From positions 1-33,977 of the forward strand of contig JWZX01003083.1 in assembly GCA_001275005.1 (NCBI GenBank): a stretch of DNA of 33,977 nt. The letters are read 5' to 3'. Shown in pieces: positions 1,308-33,977 of this stretch (position 1 is the first letter of the stretch; each line of letters opens with the position of its first letter). The notes below the pieces were generated by a model. It saw only the letters and a program-made list of their open reading frames with translations. It was not told the origin of the DNA and did no database searches. A program made the translations under genes and the position numbers. This stretch comes from Chrysochromulina tobinii. Its lineage: Eukaryota.

Positions 1308-2435
1308 ATGACGGTTGGCGAGTCCTTCCTTGAGTCCCCCGCTCGCCCGACGTCCGTCCTTTCTTCTCCCGCCCCGCTGGGCATAGAGCTGTTCGACCCG
1401 TCTTCACCGTCGTCGCCTTCGCGCTCGCCACGCACGCCTTCTATTGAGTCTGCCCACCATCACCACGACGAGGTGAACTTCGGGAATTACCGGCATGCCT
1501 TGAAGATCAGCGAAGATGCAAGGACCGCAGACAGGCGCGCCTGGCTCAAGGGCGCGCGCACATTTCGCGAGGAGCTCATCACGCGAGAGACGATGAAGCA
1601 GGCGGACATCGACAAGAAGATAGCGATCATCATCAAGAACCGGCCTGAGCCACCGGGCACGCCAAGTTCGCCGCGCGCGCGCCATGGGCCGCGCGACGCC
1701 AAGGCTGTACGCACGCCCGATATCGATTTCTCGTCCGATGTCATGAAGAACTTGACCATCCAGCGCGCGGAGCAGGCGCGGCAGGGCGCCGAGATACTCG
1801 GAGGATGGACGGCCACGGTTGGCAAACTCAAAGCGACGGAGGTGTTCGCGTCCGAGGAGCGCACGGCCAAGGTGCAGGACGCGCTTGCACAGGCGCACAA
1901 CCTCACCTCGCGCCACCACAAGTTTCAGACGCGCAAGGCGCAGTTGCAAGAGCTCGAGCGGTCAGCGAATCTCGTGCAGATGAGAAGGCACGCGAGCGAG
2001 ACGCGGCAGCGGTCTGAGCTCATGGCGCGCATGAAGGCGAATCGCGAGCGCGCGGCCGACCTGCGCGTACACGCGTGGCGCGTGACGATTGCGAGTGGCA
2101 CGGATCGCACGATCCATAATCAGGTGCTCCTGATTGCCTCTGATGACCTCCGATGGGATCCCTCATCAGGTGCTCCATCCATATGAAGCTGATTGCCTCT
2201 GATGACGATCCATAATCAAGTGCCTCTGATGACGATCCATAATCAATTGCCTCTGATGACGATCCAATTGCCCCTGATGACGATCCATAATCAGGTGCTC
2301 CATTCGCCGCGCAAGGGCGTCGGCTTGCCAGAAAGCCCCTGGCCCGTGTACAACCATGTGCCCTCGCCTCGGAGACCCGCCAGCGCGCTGCCCATTCCTT
2401 TGTCGCCTCGGACGCCCGTCACTGAGAGGCATTGA
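1308..2435 (+). CDS. Hypothetical helical/coiled-coil protein, join(1308..2123,2295..2435)
   Basis: ATG at 1308 within ORF 1164..2186. Removing GT..AG intron 2124-2294 joins RTIHNQ to VLHSPRKG...TERH* of ORF 2193..2435. Confidence 0.65.
2124..2294 (+). mobile_element. Introner-like repeat intron (171 bp), CTGAT..ATCAG family
   Basis: CAG|GTGCTCC ... CAG|GTGCTCC. 22-bp direct repeat ACGATCCATAATCAGGTGCTCC at 2109-2130 and 2280-2301. Contains CTGATTGCCT units and CCCTCATCAG at 2160-2169. Confidence 0.75.
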
Positions 2436-4667: not shown

Positions 4668-7101
4668 CTACAACCCGTCCTCCAGCAGCGCGGCTGCAAG
4701 CCGTAAGCGTCTATCCTGGACCAATGCGCTGGGCTCCTCAGTTCCTCGGGGGCGTTTGCCATACTTGGGGGCGTTGGCCATCTTCGGTCCAAGCTTCACA
4801 TCATCAGCACGCGCGGTGACCGGCTCTGTCGTCGTCCTCGAACTGAATGCTTCCATATTTGGGAGCTGCTGCTGCTGCCCCTCCGACGCGCCGTCCCAAG
4901 CGCCTTCCTGCCCGCGAGTCTGCCTGTGGGCAAAGTAGGCATCCTCCACTTCCTCCATCGGTGCGCTCAACGGCAGCCGACCCTCGCGTTCCTCACTGAG
5001 CGCCCATCGCACTCCGACGAGCGCGCGCTCGTACCTGATGAGGGAGGCAATCAGCATGCACTCAGCATGCACTCGGCATGCACTCGGCATACACTCGGCA
5101 TGCACTCGGCATGCACTCGGCATGCAATCACCTGATCCGAGCGAGCGTGGGCCGTTGGGCAGGCAATCAGGCAAACGGGCAGGCGACTAGAATGCAATCA
5201 GCGTACTCGGCAGAGAGACGAGCGAGCGCGGGCCGTTGGGCAGGCAACTCAAGTGGACGATACGCCTTTGCCGCCTTGGCCATCGACGCCTTAAAGTGGT
5301 GCACCTCAGAGTCCTTTAGGAGGGTGTAGCTCGTGCCCGCCTTGCCCGCGCGCGCGGTGCGACCGACACGGTGGACGTACCCCTTGATGTTGGCGGGCGG
5401 GTCGTAGTTGATCACGACACTCACACCCTCGACATCCATACCGCGCGCCATCGCATCCGATGCAATGAGCACGCGCGTCTGCCCTGACTTGAGCCGCTCG
5501 AGCGCGAGGGTGCGCTGCTTCGGAGGCACCGACGAGGAGAATTCGGTCGCGGCGATCCCGAGCATATGAAGCAGTCGTGTGAGACGATGCGTACTCTCCA
5601 AGGAGGAGCAAAAGACGATCACGCGGCCAGACTTGAGGGAGCGGCGTCGAAGACCGCCTCCTCCTTTTCCCACTGCCGCGAGGGCGGCGTCTGCCTCGGC
5701 GTCCTCGGCTTCGTCGTTCAAGCGTACATCTTCGGTCACCTCCGCGGCGCTGTCGTCGTCGTCGTCCTTGTCGTCGTCGTCTCCATCCTCGCCGCCTTCC
5801 ATCACCTCACCCTCTGCTCGTCCGCCCTCCGCCACGTCCTCGGCTTCAGCCTCTTGCGCCTCCGCCTCCAGCAGCCCACGCAGCAGCAGCAACAGCAGCC
5901 TGGGCTTCTCTTGGGCACCGCACGTCAGCATCCACTCCTTGAGCGTGGCGGGCGTCGCGTACCGTGCGCCCGCGACACAAAAGTAGCGTGGATTCACGAG
6001 CTGCAGCGGCGCGAGCTTGGCGGGAGAGCGCGTGAGGGTCGCGGAGAAGAGCAGCTTGAGTAACGGCGCATCCGCCCCCGTGAGCGCCAGCGGCGCGCCG
6101 CGGCTGCGTGCGGCGGCCGAGCCAAGGCGCGCACGCACGGTCTCCGCGGCGAGTGCGGCTGGGGCAGCGAGTGCCGACCGTCCTAATATGGGTGCGGCAT
6201 GGGATGGCCTAATATGGGCGGCGTCGAGGACGCTCCGCAACCAGCCTTGGTAGCCTTGCGACAGCAGCCTATCAGCCTCGTCGACGACTAAGAAGCGCAG
6301 GTGCTGCAGCGTGAAGGGAGCGCCGCTCTGCAGGTGCTCGACCAGTCGGCCGGGCGTCGCTATCACGATGTCCACCGCTGATGTGCCCTCGCCCGCCACC
6401 AAGTCGGCTTCATGGTAGCTACCGGTACTGCTTCCTCCGCTGACTCGCACGAGGCTGGCACGCTCGCGCTCCCACGAGACGCCCTCCTGACCGGCGGCGA
6501 GGCCACAGCGCAGAGGCGTGCCTTCGCAAAGCGTGCAGAACACTCCGTGCACCTGTGCCGCCAGGCCGCGCGTAGGCAGGAGCACGAGCGCGCGCAGCCG
6601 TGTCACGACCCGTGGCAGCAGCGCCTGCACAATTGGCAGCGCGTAGGCGAGAGTCTTACCCGAGCCCGTGGGCGCGCACACGCACACGTCGGCGGCCCGG
6701 CGCGCCGCATGCGCCGCGAGCACGACCGGCACGACCGCCGCCTGCACCGGGAAGCATTGATGCACGCCAAGCCGACCGAGCGCGGCGACAAGCCGCTCGT
6801 CCAGGCCGAGCATAGCCGTACTCGGCGTGCGCGCCTCGATGATACTTGCATGCGCGCGGTGCATCCAAGGCGGCAGCGAGGTTTCGTCCTCCACGCCAGC
6901 CTCCGGCTCGCCCTCTGGCATCAAAGGGTCTGCCGCCTCTTGGCCCTCGTCGTGCTCGGCATCTCCGGGCCCGCTCGCCTCCTCCTCCTCCTCCTTCTCG
7001 TCGTCGGGCAAAAGCCGGGAGTCGGCGCCCTCATCAAAGCCCATGAGCGAATCGCCGACGGTAGGCAAGCCTGCGAAGGCGTCATCCAGGTCGACTTCCA
7101 T
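4668..7101 (-). CDS. DDX51: DEAD-box RNA helicase, DDX51/DBP6-like, complement(join(4668..5034,5207..7101))
   Basis: Q motif FPVQ, APTGSGKT, LPTRGLA, TPGRL, DEAD, SAT, ARGMD, HRVGRTARAG. ATG at 7101. Splicing 5035-5206 gives SAEYERALVGV in frame with ORF 4668..5174. Confidence 0.88.
5035..5206 (-). mobile_element. Introner-like repeat intron (172 bp) in DDX51
   Basis: Minus strand GA|GTACG CTGATTGC ... CTGATTGCCTCCCTCATCAG|GTACG, a 5-bp duplication GTACG. Seven 11-bp units at 5054-5130. 29-bp exon copy at 5138-5166. Confidence 0.85.
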
Positions 7102-8722: not shown

Positions 8723-11272
8723 TCAGAACTGCAGAGCATGGCCAATCTCCACAGTGAAAAAGTCAGTGATCCACGTCCGGACGTTATCGGAGATGACGCT
8801 CCAACTCCATCCTTGATTGGCGCGGTCGGCCACACTCATCGCTATCGTCGCCCGTTCGCCATCCTTTTGGCGCTCTGGGTCGTACGAGCCCGGTCCAACG
8901 CCGGGACCCGTCTCGCGGCCGGACCCGCCCAGCGAGTCGCTAGGGAAGCGGGCCTCATGCCCTGTACCCATAAGGATGCCCCCGCTCTGGATATGCGGCT
9001 CAACAGAGGTCATGTTGGGATCGTAGGCACCCACGCCGGGAGAGGCGCTCGGGAGCAACATAGGTCGCTGTTCCGAAGTAGCACGCAAGGCGCTGCTGGC
9101 TCGGCAGCGGTTTGCCTCGTGGCCCATGGGCCGCTGGCGGCCGAATTGATCGACAGTCGGGTTATATTCTGACGGGCCGGGATTACCAGCCCCCATGATG
9201 TCTTGCCGCATCACACGCGCCGTCTGCGCGCCGAAGCCTGCAAATCCTGCGCGGCTCGCGAGGTGGAACGAGGCTGCTGCTTGCTGAATGACTTCGTGGC
9301 CGTCACCACTTTTCATCACGCGGGGGTCGTAGGCCCCAGGGTCGCCCGCGTCCGTCGCGAGCATGTTTCGTCCGTCACTGCGGCACTCACGAGCTGTCAT
9401 GGAGCCAAAGGCACCCATCCCTGCTCGGGCGCTAGCGTTGAAGGTCGAGAAAGCAGCTGCGGCCCTGACGGCAAGATCCGTGGGCAAGCGATGGCCAAAG
9501 TAGGCGCCTGGCCCAGGTGCCTCCTTCTTCTCCCGAACGAAGGACAGATCGAGTGGACGAGCCGAGGCTCCGACACCGAACCCGGCTTCTTTGCTCGCAA
9601 TCGCGCGGCTCATGCTATCCACGACCTTGTTGACGGCCTGAGCGATCGAACCGTTCACCTCAGCGTCGTACGAGCCCGGTCCAATGCCAGGACCCGTCTC
9701 GCGGCCGGACCCGCCCAGCGAGTCGCTAGGGAAGCGGGCCTCATGCCCTGTGCCCATGAGGATGCCCCCGCTCTGGATATGCGGCTCGACGGAGGTCATG
9801 TTGGGATCGTAGGCACCCACGCCGGGAGAAGCGCTCGGGAGCAGCATGGGGCGTTGCAGCGACTCCGAACGGAAGCTCCTGCTGGGCATGGCAAGACGAC
9901 TGCCCATAGCGCCATCGAGAAAGTCGGTGGTCCAAAACCGATTGTATGTCCCTGGAGCGGGCACGTCCAGCCCCATAATCTGTCGTGGCATCTCGCGTGC
10001 TGTGGCGGGTCCGAACGCATACAGCCCAAACTGCGAGCGAGTGTTGAACGATCGGCCCATGTCCGAGGAGATCGTCTTCACCCTGCTCAGGTCATACGCG
10101 CCCGGATCGCCGTTTGGAGCCTCGCAGCGCAGGCGAATGGTCGTGGTCTTGAAGGACGAGCGATGTCCATCGCCACCATTGCTGAGCTGAGATGGACTCC
10201 TTGCCTCATATGCCCCAGGACCGGGCGTGCTCATGTAGTCCATCATGCCGACGCGCTCAAAGGGCAGCTCACGGGCCTTCCATTTTCCGCCAAATGCAGG
10301 GCGGCACAAGCTCATGCGCGCATGGATCTGGGCGGCGGTCTGGGCTATCGTGCCGCTCTTGTCGTCGTACGAGCCCGGTCCAACGCCGGGACCCGTCTCG
10401 CGGCCGGACCCGCCCAGCGAGTCGCTAGGGAAGCGGGCCTCATGCCCTGTACCCATGAGGATGCCCCCACTCTGGATATGCGGCTCGACGGAGGTCATGT
10501 TGGGATCGTAGGCACCGACGCCGGGAGAGGCGCTCGGGAGCAGCTTTCTCGGGCGTTGCGGCGACTCAGAACGGAAGGCGCCACCAGCAGCATCATAATC
10601 AGCTGCAGTACTTGCCATCGGTCGAGGCACGAGTGGGCTGTAATCTGCGGCTCCGGGAGTGTTGTCGCGGACGTCCAGCTTCAAAGTGCGCTCTGTGGAA
10701 CTTCCGAACGCGCCGTGACCAATAGCATTCAAACGGTTGAATGATGATGATGCTTGGGAGCCGACATCCGTGAGATTGTACGAACCTGGGTCCTGACTTT
10801 CTTGCAGGAAAGGGTCGACCTTGGGACGCTGTGACTTTGATCGAAAGGCCGACGAGCCAGCGAGCTGTAATATGCCCGACCCCAGCTTTTGAGGATTGTA
10901 CTGGCCTGGGCCTGGACTGCCCCAACGCTTGGCTACGCGCGCCTTTATGCGCATCTCGTCCTTCTCGGCACGCTTGCTTGGGCTCAAGGTGGGTGACGTA
11001 TTGCGTGCCAAACTCGACGGTGCAGAGCCCTGGGCGATGGGCTTGCGTCGTGCAAACGGCGGTGATTTGGGCGGTGGTGCCAGCCAGACGGGCACCTTCT
11101 CTTTGAGCGGCTGTGTTGCTCCAGTGGGGCTTGCCTCGACGATTGAGGTAGGATCGCCGCTAATCAGTTCGAGGCGCGCCTCCTCCTGCTGCCGCACCTC
11201 TAGCTCCATGATCTCCTTCTCGGCGATGAATTTGGCTTCCAAATCGGCCAATGCGGCCGGAGACATCGGCAT
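8723..11272 (-). CDS. Sperm-tail PG-rich (STPG/SHIPPO-ODF3-like) repeat protein, probably axonemal
   Basis: 849-aa ORF with many PGPGxY / DPGAYD / GPGSYD motifs, each followed by F-x-S/T...R. Confidence 0.8.
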   Translation of the reverse strand: MPMSPAALADLEAKFIAEKEIMELEVRQQEEARLELISGDPTSIVEASPTGATQPLKEKVPVWLAPPPKSPPFARRKPIAQGSAPSSLARNTSPTLSPSKRAEKDEMRIKARVAKRWGSPGPGQYNPQKLGSGILQLAGSSAFRSKSQRPKVDPFLQESQDPGSYNLTDVGSQASSSFNRLNAIGHGAFGSSTERTLKLDVRDNTPGAADYSPLVPRPMASTAADYDAAGGAFRSESPQRPRKLLPSASPGVGAYDPNMTSVEPHIQSGGILMGTGHEARFPSDSLGGSGRETGPGVGPGSYDDKSGTIAQTAAQIHARMSLCRPAFGGKWKARELPFERVGMMDYMSTPGPGAYEARSPSQLSNGGDGHRSSFKTTTIRLRCEAPNGDPGAYDLSRVKTISSDMGRSFNTRSQFGLYAFGPATAREMPRQIMGLDVPAPGTYNRFWTTDFLDGAMGSRLAMPSRSFRSESLQRPMLLPSASPGVGAYDPNMTSVEPHIQSGGILMGTGHEARFPSDSLGGSGRETGPGIGPGSYDAEVNGSIAQAVNKVVDSMSRAIASKEAGFGVGASARPLDLSFVREKKEAPGPGAYFGHRLPTDLAVRAAAAFSTFNASARAGMGAFGSMTARECRSDGRNMLATDAGDPGAYDPRVMKSGDGHEVIQQAAASFHLASRAGFAGFGAQTARVMRQDIMGAGNPGPSEYNPTVDQFGRQRPMGHEANRCRASSALRATSEQRPMLLPSASPGVGAYDPNMTSVEPHIQSGGILMGTGHEARFPSDSLGGSGRETGPGVGPGSYDPERQKDGERATIAMSVADRANQGWSWSVISDNVRTWITDFFTVEIGHALQF
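8879..10544 (-). repeat. Three dispersed ~180-bp near-identical coding repeats
   Basis: Copies at about 8879-9058, 9665-9844 and 10364-10543 encode LLPSASPGVGAYDPNMTSVEPHIQSGGILMGTGHEARFPSDSLGGSGRETGPG(V/I)GPGSYD. Confidence 0.95.
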
Positions 11273-22363: not shown

Positions 22364-23994
<1,631 letters not shown>

Positions 23995-32488: not shown

Positions 32489-33977
32489 TCACTTGCGATC
32501 GATGCCGCTGAGTACCGCATCAAGCACGAGCTCCTTGGCCCGGGCGGCCTTCCGCTCGGCCCTGCTGGTGCTTCCTCGTAATGAGCGGAGGACCTCCCAT
32601 TCTCGTCCCTCCTGGGGGATGAGCAGCTGCCCGGCGCGCTCGCGGAGCGTACCTGATGAGGGAGGCAATCAGACGTCTTCAGAGGCACTCAGAGGCACTC
32701 AGACGTCACCAGAGATCATCAGACGTCATCAGAGGTCGGGTACCGAGCATGGCCTCGGCGGACAGGAAGAAGGCGTCGACGAAGACAGCCTGGCGCTTCC
32801 GGCTGACCTCCTCTGCGTCGGGAGCGCTCTCGATCACACTCACGTCCACATCGAAGGCCACGCCGCGGTCGGCCGCCGCCGCAGCGTCCGACGTGAGCGC
32901 GCTGCTCTCGCGCCAAAAGGAAGGTGGGTCTGCGGCGGGGCCGTTGAGTGGCCGCGTGCGTGGCTCCGCTTGGCGGGAGGCGCGTGCCGCGTTGCCGTCG
33001 GAGTTTTGTGCAGATCGCAGCACGGTCTCGTCAAGTGCGGCCACACCGGTTAGAGTTTCGTCAAAGTAGGGTACGGCGTCCGCCTCCACCACGCCATCTG
33101 CTGCGTCGAAGTCCGCATCGACGCTCAAGTCATCGAGCGGCAGGAAGTCTGCCGTCACGGACTGCGCATTCGTCCGCGAGTTCGACCTCCCCTCCACGCG
33201 GAGCTCGAGCGTCGCGAACACTTTCGCCGCCGCCTCGACCGCCGCCTCCGCCTCCGCCACAGCTGCCTCGGCCGCCACATCGGCCCCCGATCGAGGTGCC
33301 CAAGTTTCGTCCCAAGTTTCGTCCCGTTTCGTCAGCTTGCGGAGCTCGGCGACCCTCCGCCGCTTTGCCTCCACCTCGGCTCCGACTCCGGATGTGACGG
33401 ACGACGGTGACGGTGGCGGCGGCGGCGGCGGTCGCGCCGTCCGGACCGCCGACACAGGCGTGGCCGCCTGTGCGGCTGACGGAGGCGCGGACGAGAGCTG
33501 ACTAGAGGCCAGGGCCCTTTCCGCAGCGCCGCCGACCGCCTCGCCCAGGCTGCGCATGTCCGCAGCGAGTTTTGAAGTTGGTCCCTTGACGGCCTCGACC
33601 AAGTCGGCCAACGGCCCAAGCTGCGCCCCGCGCTGCAGGTCCGTCGCGTACTCCTGCGCAATCTCGCGCGCGAGCTCGCCCACCAGCCCCACGTCCACCC
33701 CGCCGCCGCCTCCAGTGCCCTTGGCGCCGGAGCCCGATAGGCTGTTACCCAGCGCCTCCGCAACGCGGCGAGCTACCATGCGACCCACAGCCTTGGCAGG
33801 CGGCAACACCCCGTAGACGAAAGCGTCGGCTGAGTCCTTTGTAGCACGCTGACCGAGCGCCGCCGCCACTCTCAGCTGCTTCGTCTCCGTCTCCAGCTGC
33901 CGGCGCCGCTGGCGCTCTAGGCGCTGCGCAACGGGTGAGCTCTGCCGTTGGAAAGCGCCGAGCGCCTGGGCGCCACC
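32489..33977 (-). CDS. Hypothetical Ala-rich protein, 5'-partial, complement(join(32489..32652,32744..>33977))
   Basis: Frame is open to the window edge. Splicing 32653-32743 gives AMLGTLRERAGQLLIPQEGREWEVLRSL...GIDRK* with TGA at 32491-32489. Confidence 0.65.
32653..32743 (-). mobile_element. Introner-like repeat intron (91 bp)
   Basis: G|GTACCCGACCT, seven 10-bp CTG-initiated units, then CCCTCATCAG|GTAC. The 25 bp at 32648-32672 are identical to 5030-5054 in DDX51. Confidence 0.85.

Follow-up and report, generated by a model that had tools for sequence, protein, structure and literature searches.

The origin of new spliceosomal introns is a long-standing question, and recent screens mostly credit transposons with a fixed body. 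The introners of Symbiodinium and Polarella (classes 4/5, 6/8/10) are described as carrying a 3' splice site and recruiting the 5' site from the target duplication (PMC9860276; bioRxiv 10.1101/2020.10.14.339549). The introns considered here, termed the core family after their shared 3' end, are similar in that they take the donor from duplicated host sequence, bring an acceptor, would restore the mRNA and occur in genes in many copies. However, the described introners have a fixed duplication of 3-8 nt and bodies similar from end to end (PMC9860276), whereas the core family has duplications of up to 55 nt, only its 3' 20 nt fixed, microhomologous junctions and host pieces that travel with the intron. 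Since its members are neither alike at both ends nor flanked by a duplication of fixed length, the family is not classed as a classical introner or MITE. As its filters are described, the introner screen of PMC9860276 demanded similarity at both ends and removed low-complexity families, and would therefore likely miss the core family, a class of intron-generating sequence that screens with these two filters would skip; the supplement names Chrysochromulina tobinii at least once, among the genomes that were screened.

Tandem genomic duplication across AG|GT is described as drawing both splice sites from duplicated exon (PMC3443670), as does a class of inserts without the core (the core-less class, below); in contrast to tandem-duplication introns, the duplication here is short, and a run of family repeats between the copies gives the length and a branch-like CTGAT. 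As in intron transposition and transfer, an intron that is already present gets copied elsewhere, but models of transposition involve seamless reverse splicing, with neither homology at the site nor a duplication, and transfer is said to need paralogues (PMC3443670; PMC8469720). Here the genes are unrelated, with only 9-15 nt in common, and copies can be partial. Polymerase-theta end joining and fork template switching leave direct repeats at the ends, microhomology and multi-round filler from flanks or distant DNA. The core family shares with such break-repair insertions the direct repeats at its ends, the microhomology and filler traceable to the flank or to a distant template; on the other hand, break-repair fillers are one-off sequences, and here the filler is one self-renewing family. 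Gain of introns in the course of double-strand-break repair has been described for Daphnia (PMC3443670). Target-primed reverse transcription of LINEs, as portrayed in PMC4245944, yields a fixed 3' end, a truncated 5' end, a variable duplication and flank copies at the 5' junction, all as here, but the core family has no tail or element body, uses host-gene introns as donors and includes core-less members. The core family merges tandem duplication, transposition and break repair, three mechanisms kept separate in the review as consulted (PMC3443670).

Neither the core sequence nor a description of the family was found in the open-access literature searched, although subscription papers and supplements could hold one. 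The main text of PMC12130899 contains neither "Chrysochromulina" nor "haptophyt", and introns are mentioned once in the consulted text of the C. tobin genome paper (PMC4580454).

The window, i.e., the whole 33,977-nt stretch of C. tobinii contig JWZX01003083.1 that was analysed, is GC-rich eukaryotic DNA. The gene and insert of interest are laid out as follows:

1308..2123, + strand: upstream coding part of an orphan gene (272 codons), ending ATAATCAG
2109..2130, + strand: left copy of a 22-nt host direct repeat, comprising 15 nt of exon end and the first 7 nt of the next exon; GT at 2124 is the predicted donor
2124..2294, + strand: insert, a predicted intron of 171 nt, in frame; the retained form, P0003, stops after 292 aa
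2124..2169, + strand: unit 1, with exon-start copy, family repeats plus a variant of the 3' core that has CTCATCAG at its end
2170..2193, + strand: start of unit 2, with a 9-nt copy of the downstream exon start, a 10-nt non-family spacer and the motif start
2194..2220, + strand: chimeric repeat 1 (27 nt), motif plus upstream exon end
2221..2247, + strand: chimeric repeat 2 (27 nt), motif plus upstream exon end
2248..2268, + strand: chimeric repeat 3, shortened (21 nt), motif plus upstream exon end
2269..2294, + strand: chimeric repeat 4, with CTGAT at 2274 and a host-derived CAG at its end
2280..2301, + strand: right copy of the 22-nt host direct repeat, identical to 2109-2130
2295..2435, + strand: downstream coding part (46 codons and stop), uninterrupted in 318-aa alleles

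The four chimeric units lie, base for base, where the first-pass annotation had placed them, and each joins, as it had said, the TGCCYCTGATG motif to ACGATCC(ATAATCA), the end of the upstream exon. Allowing 2 mismatches at most, the window has four occurrences of the exon-end 14-mer ACGATCCATAATCA, each of them at this locus (2109, 2205, 2232 and 2280), and Tandem Repeats Finder (TRF) reports the array with period 27, 4.1 copies and a score of 147. The 22-nt direct repeat straddles AG|GT and brackets the 171-nt insert, whose deletion in silico gives a 318-aa ORF with the C-terminus of the natural 318-aa proteins P0001, P0015 and P0016. In repeat 4, the predicted branch A lies 18 nt from the AG, compared with 17 in the family core. 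The chimeric unit of 2194-2294 was found in none of 125 other loci, including family introns of other genes, and the core variant ending unit 1 has no occurrence in these 125 metagenome loci. Two forms of the host protein, P0015 and P0003, gave no match in a Pfam search; when 2339 candidates with lengths of 149-476 aa were searched, its relatives fell into two clusters, each at 97-98% identity, and no relative of the gene at 1308-2435 below 97% identity was seen within that length range.

The 90% cluster of the host protein has 48 members. Among the 15 of the 48 that were listed, three are 318 aa long with an uninterrupted end, carry their own substitutions and lie on contigs of up to 22 kb; other listed members stop after 276, 282 or 292 aa, at the insertion point, and the 282-aa alleles end VLHLYEADCL. 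At the protein level the alleles thus differ in presence or absence of the insert, and the 318-aa proteins are read here as the empty allele on this protein evidence, although they may instead be spliced gene calls; empty-allele DNA was not found in prokaryote-genome or viral contigs. In run X14, from another study, the array has two chimeric units instead of four (48 nt, two repeats, are missing), and unit 1 is 11 nt longer with two substitutions. These allele differences (318, 292, 282 and 276 aa; the two-unit X14 form) make it likely that the insert at 2124-2294 is a recent gain that is still changing, and the two-unit allele agrees with the proposal of the first-pass annotation that slippage later amplified a chimeric unit. 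The start of unit 2 at 2170-2193 matches that of unit 1 as it stands in the X14 allele, so that it is likely a tandem duplicate.

Three further introns of the family lie in the window:

5035..5206, - strand: second family intron (172 nt) in a gene that we take to be DEAD-box-like, with a 29-nt copy of its own upstream exon that is joined on both sides to the motif
23126..23217, + strand: third family intron (92 nt) in a presumably SRP54-like gene, with a GC donor within a 20-nt copy of the downstream exon start
32653..32743, - strand: fourth family intron (91 nt), with a short site duplication, 10-nt repeats and the full core

In the third (23126-23217, +), the GC is the sole usable donor; GC follows the acceptor in 23 of 146 family clusters. 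These clusters come from a scan with a 21-nt core, which gave at least 130 matches in 125 metagenome loci (542 kb) at unrelated positions in many introns, and 146 distinct clusters after removal of duplicates; intron ends were called from DNA, the loci were picked by exact core and many are probably of one strain. Conservation is restricted to the last 20 nt (the 3' core, from the branch-like CTGAT to CATCAG; 86-100%). Upstream of it there are variable repeats of 10-11 nt (85 different 10-mers in 122 clusters) and no fixed sequence. Similarity does not extend to both intron ends, as the 5' ends are host copies, the exceptions being donor-recipient pairs. Terminal inverted repeats are absent, with 5' ends that are host copies or truncated repeats; among family introns there is also no tail after the core and no common element body. 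The core was not present in viral contigs. Among the 51 clusters whose post-acceptor dinucleotide was not imposed by the search pattern, 45 have GY there, and 44 of 45 neighbouring family introns within 1.5 kb are co-oriented. Neighbours are not more alike overall (suffix 13.8 vs. 15.8 nt; repeat-type test, p 0.09), and an open-frame test did not separate the strands (50 vs. 40 of 54). Two or more acceptors occur in 41 of the 146 clusters, as stacks of cryptic splice sites, and whole units (exon-start copy, repeats and core) are arrayed head to tail in L008, L012, L025, L037, L038, L041 and L046.

Copies of an intron's own flanks are enriched over shuffled exons, as the first-pass annotation had anticipated. 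A downstream-exon copy with a score of at least 10 opens the intron in 45 of 146 clusters (shuffled, 0.08%), and its length in 54 confident cases is 8-55 nt; the host duplications at family introns, from a few nt to 55, are not of fixed length. Low scores are frequent (76 to 92 of 146 under 6 to 8), and many members have only 4-7 nt duplicated. For upstream copies, 135 clusters have GY after the acceptor and 110 of these a donor candidate; 13 of the 110 contain a 12-mer or longer from their own upstream exon (shuffled mean, 0.04), or 11 once two boundary mis-calls are dropped. At the nine scorable junctions from motif to upstream copy there are 3-6 nt of microhomology (mean 4.6 vs. 1.1 nt), and at the 5' junctions (33 scorable of 54) 1.73 vs. 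0.96 nt; none of 10,000 shuffles reaches either value. This junction microhomology fits template switching between motif and host DNA, which had been proposed for this insert. In L011, L065 and L089 the upstream copy is followed by the first unit's repeats, as plain later slippage would give; in L029, L078, L107 and at 5035-5206 of the window, the sequence after the copy is unlike the intron start. A fold-back model was dropped, since at 10 nt only three of the 110 introns have an inverted copy of the upstream flank and three one of the downstream flank, close to the highest count in shuffles (3). Improvement of donors after insertion was likewise set aside, with three GC-to-GT and two position-3 changes among 54 being too few.

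Copying from one intron to another site can be followed in four pairs, in three of which the donor's exon piece was brought to a site homologous over 9-15 nt. L093 and L043 (also L090) have introns of 73 nt that are 71/73 identical, although the proteins are unrelated; the sites match over 12 nt and the donor's 20-nt exon piece is included. The direction is from L093 to L043, because the first 20 nt of the intron match the exon of L093 and only 12 nt that of L043. For L060 to L114, the switch out of the recipient's exon copy lies at a match of 14 of 15 nt, after which come 49 nt of L060 exon piece and repeats. Within L024, the intron at 5542 gave rise to that at 2674, 2.9 kb away, carrying its exon-derived start to a site with a match of about 9 nt. 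In L079, a rare 42-nt end is common to two introns; both (176-520, -) sit at equivalent positions of a repeated protein motif, presumably MORN-like, and a local transfer is likely. Two of the four firm pairs are thus same-locus pairs, though only 88 such pairs were compared, vs. 10,472 others, and only two firm pairs are unlinked. Cross-locus pairs share non-family sequence in the same orientation only, none being found on opposite strands. Three pairs sharing 17-19 nt (L001/L095, L017/L078 and L009/L041) were excluded because they may reflect host-host coincidence, and the L001 piece is readable as a micro-exon. Most of the 68 unexplained segments, in 45 of the 110 introns, have no convincing source in the 542 kb, and of 63 matches in a 13-mer source search nearly all are chance-like. 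With four inserts per 34 kb, the density of a single window, and a genome of 59 Mb, if it is of that size (PMC4580454), a rough figure of about 7,000 members is obtained; one donor link per member would then roughly predict about two unlinked pairs among 110, and two were seen. Because the core family spreads with no fixed body, yields donor-recipient pairs that can be traced and varies between alleles at 2124-2294, population genomes can show where gained introns come from, in which direction they are copied and what rules their junctions follow.

Like the insert at 2124-2294, some members end without the core. A screen gave 289 motif chains, 150 of which do not end in it; 90 of these lack a flanking repeat, 34 were discarded because they were internal or derived from the family, and 7 of the remaining 26 were set aside (upstream copy below 8 nt), leaving 19 for scoring (the screen was run at three filter settings, the two earlier ones keeping 17 and 19). 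In 14 of the 19, the 2124-2294 locus and 13 others, GY..AG lies in register inside the host repeat (null, 3.8), so that both predicted splice sites come from a duplicated exon stretch with AG|GY; five have no in-register splice sites. Microhomology is weak in this class (1.86 vs. 1.06, p 0.005; 10 of 14 at 0-1 nt), and under a stricter earlier filter there was no excess (1.22 vs. 1.27). Core-less inserts could stem from unit loss in longer introns. Three other repeat runs between host duplications (L001 -3841, L044 -3317, L064 +4607) have a good donor and TG, CG or TC in place of AG; they may be internal parts, unspliced inserts or inserts with odd acceptors.

On balance, these introns are probably best explained by microhomology-guided copying from existing introns combined with host duplication and followed by slippage. 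At the new site, a free DNA end would anneal to a short matching stretch of a family intron that already exists and copy it, partly or wholly, through the core; by then rejoining the host upstream of the exit point it would duplicate a variable stretch of exon. A GT or GC donor would come from the duplicated host, and the AG from the core or from another copy of the host, so that splicing would restore the mRNA. Additional switches to the host would leave upstream-exon copies, and the direct repeats could later cause tandem gain and loss. We favour a host repair or replication polymerase acting on a DNA donor, with polymerase-theta-like end joining or fork template switching as candidate routes; reverse transcription with unspliced pre-mRNA as the template would leave the same footprint. 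Since every donor intron is followed by GY and begins with a copy of that exon, products rejoining at GY would be spliceable and become new donors. A wider proposal, plausible but somewhat short of probable, is a chain reaction without a transposon, in which each family intron, flanked by an exon duplication, serves as a template for genes with a chance 6-15-nt match; such a family would renew itself, carry scraps of old host genes and might account for thousands of introns.

At the present locus, the likely sequence of events starts with the insertion of a normal family unit with a 9-nt duplication, which the 282-aa alleles and their 10-nt foreign spacer fit. That unit would then have been duplicated in tandem (unit 2 repeats the start of unit 1), and the second core swapped for the exon end through homology between the core-plus-exon-start junction and the exon-end junction, which match at 20 of 22 nt. 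Slippage with a period of 27, equal to the distance from TGC at 2269 to TGC at 2296, could finally have given two and then four repeats. The chimeric end thus looks secondary, made after a normal family unit had been inserted. The view of the first-pass annotation that the intron was built in place by switching between motif and host DNA holds for the template switch itself, but the switch would be a secondary event with a motif from a pre-existing intron. Its corollary, that the intron did not arrive as a preformed element, is not supported for the family part, which is copied from existing introns, sometimes whole (71/73 nt). The pattern at 2124-2294 is real and family-wide, and its mechanism is testable and possibly transposon-free.

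The insert might instead be a non-working intron, a disruption that an orphan gene tolerates close to its end and that truncates a dispensable tail, which we consider somewhat unlikely. It is retained in RNA contigs, dominantly so in the polyA run X14 (depth 31.6 vs. 34 in the exon) and also in X11, X12, X15 and X16, and this is not DNA carry-over, since the ordinary intron next to it is uncovered in the RNA runs. The first-pass annotation had the final repeat supply the acceptor; the repeat does end in CAG, but no spliced joint for 2124-2294 is present among the contigs of six RNA runs, and contigs drop rare forms. Given the missing joint and the retention in X14, the copy may be a poor or failed intron; a host gene of no Pfam family and a 3' end without the pyrimidine-rich core agree with this. 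On the other hand, the GT..AG is in register and its in-frame removal gives back the natural 318-aa end, and the reading leaves the construction of the insert unexplained. Contigs of X13 and X15 stop matching the window at precisely position 2280, where the right repeat copy starts, and run on for 12 and 1 letters. This is no more than a hint that spliced or empty molecules exist; the same would be seen with an empty allele. In X13, 2116-2279 is largely uncovered by RNA, although such gaps alone carry no evidential weight, and runs X17-X20 contain none of the search words. Splicing of the family intron at 5035-5206 is seen as a joint at 5029-5202 (CT..AC) in one X11 contig (depth 3.3). Over 2125-2174 of the window, the summed RNA-contig depth of family sequence in runs X13-X16 is 116-616, compared with 3-34 for the flanks; family introns that remain unspliced are frequent in RNA libraries, including polyA ones.

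For the family as a whole, it is doubtful that the introns are SINE-like introners, in which a reverse transcriptase of LINE type would start from a nick on a dedicated short RNA that ends in the core, leave 5'-truncated copies and jump to the flank before completing the copy, own-flank copies being extra nucleotides at the 5' end. The polarity fits, with 3' 20 nt conserved at 86-100% and a variable 5' end, as do the variable duplications, the 5' microhomology and the abundance of family sequence in RNA contigs; LINE 5' junctions are described with microhomology and extra nucleotides taken from the flank (PMC4245944). The core also forms a 5-bp hairpin, but at -1.3 kcal/mol it is too weak to mean much. 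Against priming on such an RNA, there is no tail and no common upstream body, duplications reach 55 nt, and the donors are ordinary introns of other genes, which arrive together with a piece of their own exon and require site homology.

It is just as improbable that an ordinary introner with a duplication of about 4 nt was inserted, with long copies, tandem units and sharing between loci arising later by slippage, unequal exchange and gene conversion, changes that would be tolerated because they stay inside the intron. Marine Chrysochromulina introners are reported with 4-bp duplications and without terminal inverted repeats (PMC9860276), and the members with only 4-7 nt duplicated, the upstream copies that are exact junction duplications and the apparent secondary remodelling of the 2124-2294 locus itself are in keeping with such a history. 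However, the long copies at the 5' extremity of single-unit introns would require two later events each, whole-intron copies between unrelated genes make new introns and do not remodel old ones, and in four introns (L029, L078, L107 and 5035-5206) the post-copy parts differ from the intron start. In addition, Chrysochromulina introners of the published type bring a 5' site of their own, opposite to the arrangement in the core family. It is extremely unlikely that the array is an assembly artefact, since, although the family motif is present in very many copies (its summed depth exceeds 1800 at 2064-2207 in run X9), the array's longest exact repeat is 26 nt, it is crossed by a single DNA contig (1200-5056; X9, possibly the source sample) and by RNA contigs of X11 (2196-2571) and X12 (1808-2274), a related allele comes from an independent study, and P0003 is found on 28 contigs.

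Two other repeat-associated sequences were noted in the metagenome loci. Another 3' element conserved among introns, GCATGCAAGTGCTCACCAC, comes after the family's repeats at L017 +5141, L037 +4422, L041 -4209 and -2503 and L108 +251, and also adjoins upstream-exon copies. A related repeat type beginning GATCTCCCTTGATTG lies just past the donor at L051 +137, L068 -5268 to -5322 and L017 +4561, in introns that end in long upstream-exon copies. Elsewhere in the window, three long near-identical blocks (8880-9050, 9665-9845 and 10365-10545) were seen by eye in a minus-strand ORF that has repeats of a PGPGxY type.
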